Source: a virus (lineage: Duplodnaviria > Heunggongvirae > Uroviricota > Caudoviricetes). Taken from it: a stretch of 36,503 nucleotides of DNA. The stretch is from positions 1 through 36,503 of IMG/VR virus record IMGVR_UViG_2713896908_000012, one strand, 5' to 3'. The position numbers were made by a program, and so were the translations under genes. Below the pieces are notes generated by a model that was not told the DNA's origin, searched no databases, and worked only from the letters and a program-made list of their open reading frames with translations. Shown here piece by piece: positions 19,871 to 20,527 of the stretch (position 1 is the stretch's first letter; each line of letters starts with the position of its first letter).

Positions 19871-19897
19871 AAACGACAAAACCCGCTCGGTGGCGGG
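19871..19897 (-). terminator. Candidate tR'-like intrinsic terminator downstream of the late promoter
   Basis: Stem CCCGC/GCGGG with 6-nt loop (19882-19897), followed on the minus strand by UUUUGUCGUUU. Confidence 0.55.
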
Positions 19898-19959
19898 TTC
19901 TATTAAAGTTCAATTGCATTTGGTTCGCCTCGCGATACAGCTTTGCGAAGCGTACCGGA

Positions 19960-19988
19960 ATTAAAGCTGTTTATGCGTAAAAAATCAA
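19960..19988 (-). promoter_or_regulatory. Candidate late promoter (pR'-like): -35 TTGATT, 17-bp spacer, -10 TTTAAT
   Basis: Minus-strand -35 at 19988..19983 and -10 at 19965..19960, immediately downstream of the Q-like gene stop and ~60 nt upstream of the terminator hairpin; lambda-like Q/pR'/tR' geometry. Confidence 0.45.
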
Positions 19989-20527
19989 GCTATTGTTTGA
20001 GCAAATGATTCTCGCATGGGAATATATAGGGCATACTCAGCAACAGCCAACCAATTAGCAATTCGCTTTTCGCATGTGCTAAAACACCACTCAGGATGTG
20101 CATCATTTAGCAATTCAGCCATTTTGCGCTTAGTCATCCCCCGTCCTTCATACCGTTGCCGGAGGACACTAATCAATCCAGGATGCTCTGCCAGCACCTC
20201 ACTTATGACTCGATCAATACATAACGCCTCTGCATCAGTACAATGCGCCAGCCAGGTCTTTTGCTTGCCATTGATCATCTCTCGCAAAAACGCTTCCAGC
20301 TCAGGTTTCTCTATTCCCGCTTTTTTCATCCTGCGCAGGGCTTCATTGACGGCTGTTTTCGTCAATTTTTTGGATGCCAGCAACTGGTTAAACATATTTC
20401 CCATCTTACCGCCGCCAATATACGACCAGCGCCCCCACATGCGCAGTTTTCCCTGAATCCAGACACTTTCCAGCGTGGTGAGACGAAGGTGTTCCCCGCT
20501 TTTGCCTGTATTTGTTGGGTAAATCAT
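19985..20527 (-). CDS. Putative late-gene antiterminator (Q-like)
   Basis: 180-aa ORF directly upstream of the candidate late promoter and lysis cassette; four Cys in a possible zinc-binding arrangement (AHCTDAEALC...PEWCFSTC). Assigned mainly by position. Confidence 0.5.
   Translation of the reverse strand: MIYPTNTGKSGEHLRLTTLESVWIQGKLRMWGRWSYIGGGKMGNMFNQLLASKKLTKTAVNEALRRMKKAGIEKPELEAFLREMINGKQKTWLAHCTDAEALCIDRVISEVLAEHPGLISVLRQRYEGRGMTKRKMAELLNDAHPEWCFSTCEKRIANWLAVAEYALYIPMRESFAQTIA

Follow-up and report, generated by a model that had tools for sequence, protein, structure and literature searches.

Which element switches on the late genes of a lambdoid prophage is the question raised by one locus of the virus record IMGVR_UViG_2713896908_000012 (IMG/VR), here called the window and analyzed at its full length of 36,503 nucleotides (nt), in which a gene for a 180-amino-acid protein is followed at once by a promoter-like sequence and a strong hairpin. 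The initial annotation of this stretch had proposed that the protein is the late antiterminator, even though it is not similar in sequence to the Q protein of phage lambda, and that the promoter and the hairpin produce a short terminated RNA as at lambda pR'/tR'. We conclude, with a probability of roughly 0.85, that the locus is a late antitermination cassette of the type known for the Q protein of phage 21 (Q21). Every feature of the cassette, i.e., the open reading frame (ORF), the promoter and the hairpin, is read on the minus strand, and the parts are as follows.

19985–20527, minus strand: predicted Q-type antiterminator gene, 180 amino acids, Pfam DUF1133, remote homologue of Q21; stop codon TGA at 19987-19985.
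19983–19988, minus strand: candidate -35 hexamer TTGATT, overlapping the Q stop codon; TTGnnn is kept at this place in related loci.
19966–19982, minus strand: promoter spacer of 17 nt, TTTTACGCATAAACAGC, candidate Q-binding element.
19959–19965, minus strand: candidate -10 region TTTAATT, read either as TTTAAT (19965-19960) or as TTAATT (19964-19959).
19949–19954, minus strand: candidate sigma-dependent pause element TACGCT, in which TAnnCT is conserved and which holds the presumed start, A19953.
19926–19951, minus strand: initially transcribed block of 26 nt, GCTTCGCAAAGCTGTATCGCGAGGCG, nearly invariant across 81 loci of the window family.
19871–19903, minus strand: intrinsic terminator (tR'-like), stem 19903-19893 / 19886-19876, loop CACCGA, U-run to 19871.

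The protein matched Pfam DUF1133 with an E-value of 1e-108 and, marginally, PF06530 (28.1 bits at a cut-off of 26), which is the family of Q21 and Q933W (10.1101/651190); these two were the only Pfam matches reported at E up to 0.01, and the lambda Q family, PF03589, was not among them. In PHROGs, it matched PHROG 753, 'anti-termination protein Q-like'. Phage 21, with its record OL657228 and the Q21 structures 6P18, 6P19 and 6P1A of the PDB, served as the reference for further comparison. Since a search of the PDB with the single sequence gave Q21 at an E-value of 0.11 only, a family profile was needed, and the one made from 21 diverse DUF1133 members indeed retrieved Q21 (6P18) as its best match (E = 2.9e-8). 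By hhalign, residues 13-177 of the family were laid on residues 5-151 of Q21 at a probability of 96.5% (E = 7.7e-10), with an identity of about 22%. The structure of the protein was also predicted by AlphaFold from 14 sequences (mean predicted local distance difference test score, pLDDT, of 57.5, with residues 100-170 good), and when this model was compared with the PDB by Foldseek, the best nine matches were all Q21 chains, the next match having an E-value above 3. These results support the assignment of the 180-amino-acid protein as a Q-type antiterminator that is remotely homologous to Q21 and not lambda-Q-like, and the presence of late genes downstream on the same strand is consistent with the late role that had been proposed for it. 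The DUF1133 protein has already been listed as a Q antiterminator, via HHpred, in 13 Stx phages (PMC8136144), and depositors of GenBank records label it as Q in Rac-like phages. In sequence space the family is narrow, and no more than a handful of clusters form at 50% identity; nonetheless, when Q was searched together with its downstream region, 1765 of 5426 complete E. coli genomes gave a match, and members are also found in Salmonella, Citrobacter, Klebsiella, Enterobacter, Pantoea, Serratia and others.

The promoter that had been proposed, TTGATT and TTTAAT separated by 17 nt, is indeed found at 19988-19960, where it overlaps the Q stop. The hexamer pair taken alone was not above chance, and consensus scans returned fewer promoter-like sites than were found in shuffles; the pair itself is left out by the consensus scan because TTTAAT lacks an A at position 2. 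One may thus suppose that the hexamers are a chance match and that the hairpin only ends the early (nin-region) operon, the late genes being driven from elsewhere, for example by a promoter closer to the holin gene or by readthrough from the early promoter; a terminator is expected anyway after the last early gene, and a second terminator-like site (18922-18906) is located just before the holin gene. Since the hexamers alone are no better than chance, the case for the promoter was built on comparison with relatives, for which 203 DUF1133 loci were collected from viral contigs and annotated records, with Q proteins 38-100% identical to that of the window. The layout TTGnnn-17-TTnAAT-5-TAnnCT was found in 197 of the 203, and also in most of 31 further loci from species-representative genomes of Escherichia, Salmonella, Citrobacter, Klebsiella, Enterobacter, Serratia and others. 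Such retention of the -35, the 17-nt spacing, the -10 and TAnnCT over the entire range of Q identity and across many genera argues against a chance match, as does the parallel with the annotated pR' of phage 21. Moreover, in the subfamilies with a longer Q, the promoter, including its -35, falls within the last 27 nt of the reading frame, and the promoter scan of the window reported no promoter-like site between 19093 and the holin gene from which the late genes could otherwise be served. Considering all this, it is very unlikely that the hairpin only closes the early operon. A composite motif derived from the related loci, TTG-N20-TTNAAT-N5-TANNCT, occurred once in the window (19988-19949) and in none of 100 shuffles. 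Another promoter-like pair, TTGGCT-18-TATATT inside the Q gene (20050-20021), was taken as a chance match, such sites being no commoner than in shuffles.

The two possible registers of the -10 were considered in the same comparison. Most close relatives carry TTCAAT where the window has TTTAAT, and TTGAAT and TTAAAT also occur among the relatives. When read one base later, the hexamer becomes TnAATT, and about half of the subfamilies then have TAAATT (from TTAAAT), the -10 sequence of lambda pR'. The TnAATT register, i.e., TTAATT at 19964-19959 in the window, appears to fit a -10 better than TTnAAT. Transcription would be predicted to start 6-8 nt after the -10, at A19953 ± 1, and to end near 19873, and the resulting RNA of about 80 nt agrees in length and in start with the one that had been forecast (start at about 19952).

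In the phage 21 record, the Q gene is followed by a -35 (TTGACA), the Q-binding element ATTGAGCA AATGAGCA in the spacer, a -10 (AACACT, which is also weak by consensus), the start site, TAAGCTG and a terminator, after which come tRNAs and the holin gene. The window and its relatives have a corresponding element: in the 197 loci, TAnnCT stands 5 nt after the -10, in the forms TAAGCT, TATGCT, TAGGCT and, in the window, TACGCT, always with the A at position 2 and the T at position 6, and this consensus is the same as that of the annotated pause element of phage 21, TAAGCTG, which directly follows the phage 21 start site. TACGCT would therefore supply the pause element that a Q cassette should possess. 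Since the A and the T at these key positions are kept much better than those of TTnAAT, it may be asked if TAnnCT (TACGCT, 19954-19949) is itself the true -10, in which case transcription would start about 10 nt downstream, near 19942, and there would be no pause element of the phage 21 type. However, no subfamily has a -35-like hexamer 16-18 nt upstream of it, the TG extension is not conserved, the conserved TTGnnn is too far away at 28 nt upstream, and the same element in phage 21 is annotated as a pause element after the start site. This alternative was rejected for want of a -35 at the right spacing, and only a slim chance is left to it. The initial annotation thus appears to have overlooked both the pause element and the candidate Q-binding element in the spacer, in addition to presenting a -10 that is non-canonical as judged from its sequence.

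The spacer of the window has the same position as the Q-binding element of phage 21, in which two 8-bp subsites form a direct repeat within the promoter spacer. The equivalent subsites of the window would be TTACGC (upstream, 19980-19975) and AAACAG (downstream, 19972-19967). The spacer differs among subfamilies, being TTTTACGCATAAAC(A/T)GC in the window family, AGTTGCGCGGAAAGTGC in the P0121 family and AGTGAGCCAGTGACTGA in the P0134 family; the last is a direct repeat (AGTGAGCC AGTGACTG) like the Q21 element, and, when counted by hand, 18 bp separate the start of the downstream subsite from the pause element in both the P0134 subfamily and phage 21. The T-C-x-x-R motif of the Q proteins, which is aligned with the recognition helix of Q21, co-varies with the upstream subsite. 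TCRRR was paired with TGAGC(C/A) or TGAACC in all 22 distinct combinations, and Q21 itself has TCRRE with TGAGCA; TCEKR, the motif of the window, was paired with TTACGC or TTACGT in eight of eight, while TCE(S/T/N)R goes with TTGCGC, and TCERR with TGTCG(T/C). In L208, a natural recombinant, the body, the transcribed region and the terminator are window-like, and the helix is TCRRR and the subsite TGAGCC. The pairing of helix and subsite, common to Q21 (TCRR with TGAGC), thus amounts to a testable recognition code.

In a 184-amino-acid subfamily of the same protein (loci L212, L213 and L215, at about 2530-2680), the C-terminal end is different, and in L215 the helix motif is also different (TCCSR). 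The downstream region of these loci is unrelated, with TTGACT, 18 nt and TATATT, and, some 90 nt beyond these, a terminator made of GACGCGCCCGCGTC and a T-run. Judging from the sequences, the C-terminus of Q and its target region appear to have been swapped together in this subfamily.

The strong hairpin with a U-run that had been noted about 60 nt downstream could be delimited precisely. It is G+C-rich and begins about 60 nt beyond the -10; its core stem, AACCCGC (19899-19893) with GCGGGTT (19886-19880), can be lengthened to 11 pairs (19903-19876), and the tail, TTTTGTCGTTT, ends at 19871. Its folding energy was -15.6 kcal/mol (z = -4.5), and none of 200 shuffles was as stable. The terminator scan of the window did not pick up this hairpin, probably because the scan continues the stem into the T-run, and too few T residues are left in the tail. 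Among the relatives, the 197 loci yielded 126 distinct downstream sequences, each with a hairpin whose T-run ends 60-79 nt beyond the pause element, and the stems were of several unrelated types (CCCGCC, GCCCAAGG, GCCTAC, CCTGC and ACCGC). That the terminator has kept its position although its sequence has been replaced is good evidence for the need of a terminator at this place. The other terminator-like hairpin of this part of the window, TCCCGGAATATTCGGGG with a T-run (18906-18922, minus strand), is about 30 nt before the holin start, inside a block that is conserved in E. coli prophages; it may be a second terminator for the Q-modified polymerase to pass.

The neighboring genes were also in agreement with a Q cassette. 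The start of the Q gene overlaps the stop of a YbcO-like (ybcO-like) gene in the sequence ATGA (20527-20524), the YbcO-like gene is itself preceded by a NinB/DUF1367 gene, and CI-like and CII-like genes are present upstream of the cassette. The first late genes, identified by Pfam and PHROG matches, are on the same strand.

18874–18515, minus strand: holin gene.
18511–18035, minus strand: endolysin gene.
18051–17659, minus strand: Rz-like spanin gene.

Beyond Rz, still on this strand, are a ParB-like gene and the terminase, portal, head and tail genes. The order of NinB-like, YbcO, Q, promoter, terminator, cargo, holin, endolysin, Rz and terminase onwards is that of the standard lambdoid map. 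Judged by sequence, a Q gene thus lies directly upstream of a predicted promoter that precedes lysis and structural genes in the same orientation.

To these elements, with their observed conservation and geometry, the Q21 homology and the gene order, a mechanism can be fitted on the model of the Q21 work (10.1101/651190), from which the start site, the pause, the binding of Q to the spacer and the readthrough are taken. Host RNA polymerase with sigma-70 would initiate near A19953 at a constitutive promoter that overlaps the end of Q, and would pause a few bases further on, where sigma rebinds the -10-like TACGCT at the start site. Without Q, the complex would terminate at the hairpin and U-run of 19903-19871 and release the RNA of about 80 nt. 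After its accumulation, the 180-amino-acid protein would bind to the spacer of the promoter, be loaded onto the paused complex and travel with the polymerase, suppressing the 19903-19871 terminator as well as later ones. Readthrough would then extend across the cargo slot to the lysis genes, with the holin gene at 18874, and to structural genes that span about 18 kb.

The comparison with phage 21 may be considered on both sides. In common are the remote homology of Q with the same fold matches, the place of Q as the last gene before the lysis cassette, a promoter beginning within a few bases of the Q stop, a candidate binding element in the spacer, a TAnGCT pause element at the start, and an intrinsic terminator that is followed by cargo or tRNAs and then by the holin gene. 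Several observations weigh against a Q21-type cassette. The structure model of the 180-amino-acid protein is poor overall, as its mean pLDDT of 57.5 indicates. By hhalign, DUF1133 is without the long loop of the Q21 helix-turn[loop]-helix and has an additional segment of about 35 residues (roughly 40-85); the Q21 segment between the two helices, RPRKMLCRGGGRIQKPS, is mostly unpaired in the alignment, where DUF1133 has only HPEW-CFS. Since the long loop of Q21 makes the contacts to the DNA minor groove and to a second Q protomer, and it is absent here while the extra segment is present, DNA binding may differ from that of Q21. On the DNA side, neither register of the -10 has an A at position 2 in the window family (TTTAAT or TTAATT; TTCAAT or TCAATT in relatives), and by its sequence the promoter would be rated weak by consensus. 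The pause element, which spans about -1 to +5, is 2 bp nearer to the -10 than in phage 21, and both this element and the spacer subsites are 2 bp nearer to the -35. A direct repeat such as that in the Q-binding element of Q21 is not clearly seen in the spacer of the window family, TTTTACGC ATAAACAG. The phage 21 terminator begins right after the pause element and gives an RNA of about 50 nt, whereas in the window a separate conserved 5' block or predicted hairpin comes first, and the RNA would be about 80 nt. Lastly, the co-variation of helix and subsite is confounded by tight linkage, and with under 100 bp between the helix codons and the site, much of the pattern could come from linkage by itself; the agreement with the otherwise unrelated Q21 is, by sequence, the stronger point for the pairing.

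The likeness to lambda that had been stated holds for the logic of the switch, and phage 21 pR' turned out to be the closest model. Lambda has, and the window is predicted to have, a constitutive late promoter right after Q with a -10-like pause element at the start (AACGAT in lambda), a short terminated RNA made in lysogens, and readthrough into the lysis and structural genes. The Q proteins have no sequence relation, and the lambda pR' RNA is 194 nt long against the 80 nt or so predicted here.

The short RNA raises a question of its own, since it could be either a by-product of the switch or a functional molecule. Lambda (6S RNA), 21, phi80, 82 and P22 are known to make short terminated RNAs from pR'. 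In Stx phages, the short pR' RNA is processed into the small RNA StxS (PMC7547250), and IsrK of Gifsy-1 directly follows the Q-like gene antQ (PMC4825925). As is predicted for the present locus, each of these is a short RNA from a promoter directly after a Q-type gene, with a terminator that is overridden by Q, and IsrK, with 77 nt, a 5' hairpin and a terminator, has the same layout as the RNA predicted here. The latter folded as a whole at -28.3 kcal/mol (z = -2.9). Its 26-nt block (19951-19926) is flanked on both sides by variable sequence, and only four of the 81 window-family loci (L041, L068, L071 and L079) had single-base variants in it. A 5' hairpin is predicted from CGCUUCGC (19952-19945) and GCGAGGCG (19933-19926), and in other Q subfamilies this position is taken by different blocks, which can pair as well. 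The known examples, the near-invariance of the block and the layout shared with IsrK speak for the proposal that the short RNA is itself the main product, i.e., a stable regulatory small RNA like StxS or IsrK, with antitermination as only a part of the function. On the other hand, pair counts within families revealed no double compensatory change in the 5' hairpin, only wobble changes and some breaks, and cross-family alignment did not bring its 3' arms into register, such that covariation neither supported nor refuted the hairpin; furthermore, the transcribed block differs between subfamilies. There was also no significant match to these small RNAs in sequence or by covariance model. The isrK model of Rfam (RF01394) aligned end to end with 19951-19876, where the two-hairpin layout is common to both, but its score of 12.8 bits (E = 0.7-1.9) is not significant against the gathering cut-off of 50, and membership in isrK is therefore not supported. 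At gathering thresholds, Rfam gave no family in the cassette region, and no isrK in the window or in 21 related loci; nor was IsrK found beside the DUF1133 genes in six Salmonella loci that were scanned. The matches at permissive thresholds (STnc370, the Trp and Leu leaders, and the 12.8-bit isrK) were weak, driven by the terminator and non-significant, and were set aside. On balance, a regulatory RNA as the main product is doubtful, and it would add to the Q21-type cassette rather than replace it. It is likewise a tentative idea that the RNA of lysogens is more than a by-product and that the 26-nt block is a functional RNA element or a component of Q loading. If true, the block might provide the seed or the structure of a StxS- or IsrK-like small RNA that acts in trans, or alternatively a Q-loading component, at the level of RNA or DNA, that phage 21 lacks, and about one in three complete E. 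coli genomes would carry such a functional RNA of about 80 nt.

The cassette is of an ordinary kind among phage switches, and what is new is that its parts have been mapped for the DUF1133 family, a very common family that Pfam still lists as a domain of unknown function. Placement of DUF1133 in the Q21 superfamily, together with the mapped parts, provides annotators with a rule for locating the start of the late operon. Among the closest known systems are the Rac-like E. coli prophages Rac-SA53 (KU052037) and vB_EcoS-666R9 (ON470614), which have the same order of DUF1367, ybcO and Q, and whose Q proteins, deposited as 'antitermination protein Q', are 74-96% identical to that of the window. 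These Rac-like records annotate no promoter, pause element or terminator, and they differ from the window in the cargo that follows the terminator (eplBA in Rac-SA53).

The mapped terminator also marks the cargo slot that is directly behind it, which in relatives holds toxin genes, tRNAs and small RNAs, and the expression of such cargo would then depend on prophage induction via the DUF1133 Q. The slot and its contents in the window are as follows.

18984–19867, no strand assigned: variable cargo slot, from the terminator to the lysis genes; homology is lost at 19868-19862 and regained at 18983 or 19070.
19863 or 19857–19648, minus strand: small ORF, phrog_11414, no Pfam match.
19093–19632, plus strand: DUF2441 gene, convergent with the small ORF and with the late transcript.

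Homology to E. coli prophages (95-98%) ends 3-9 nt past the U-run, at 19868-19862, and resumes before the holin gene, and about 10 different sequences follow the terminator among the 81 window-family loci. The small ORF likely starts at the ATG of 19857, 5 nt behind AAGGA, giving 69 amino acids; its closest relative (L004) is without the first ATG. Expression of the small ORF would require either readthrough or its own promoter. The DUF2441 gene faces the late transcript, and late transcription must therefore cross it in antisense. An inverted repeat, CTATCAGGCG...CGCCTGATAG (19645-19690), separates the DUF2441 gene from the small ORF. In Rac-SA53 (locus L241), the pertussis-like toxin genes eplB and eplA occupy the slot between the Q and holin genes (3492-4723). 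The slots of other relatives hold STnc100 (RF02076) or tRNA pairs (L066, 2177-2363; L103, 2365-2566; L098, 2519-2714; L204-L207, 3392-3542), which parallels phage 21 and the Stx phages.

A few minor features were recorded elsewhere in the window. A search for CII boxes of an antisense, paQ-like promoter in the Q gene gave one match, TTGCCTGTATTTGT at 20502-20515 on the plus strand, which is antisense inside the 5' end of the gene and is reminiscent of paQ, a promoter of lambda and phage 21; the window as a whole had fewer such matches than expected by chance. Two antitoxin RNAs scored well above the Rfam gathering threshold, namely sok at 22126-22278 (minus strand), beside a hok-type gene, and RalA at 34769-34947 (minus strand).

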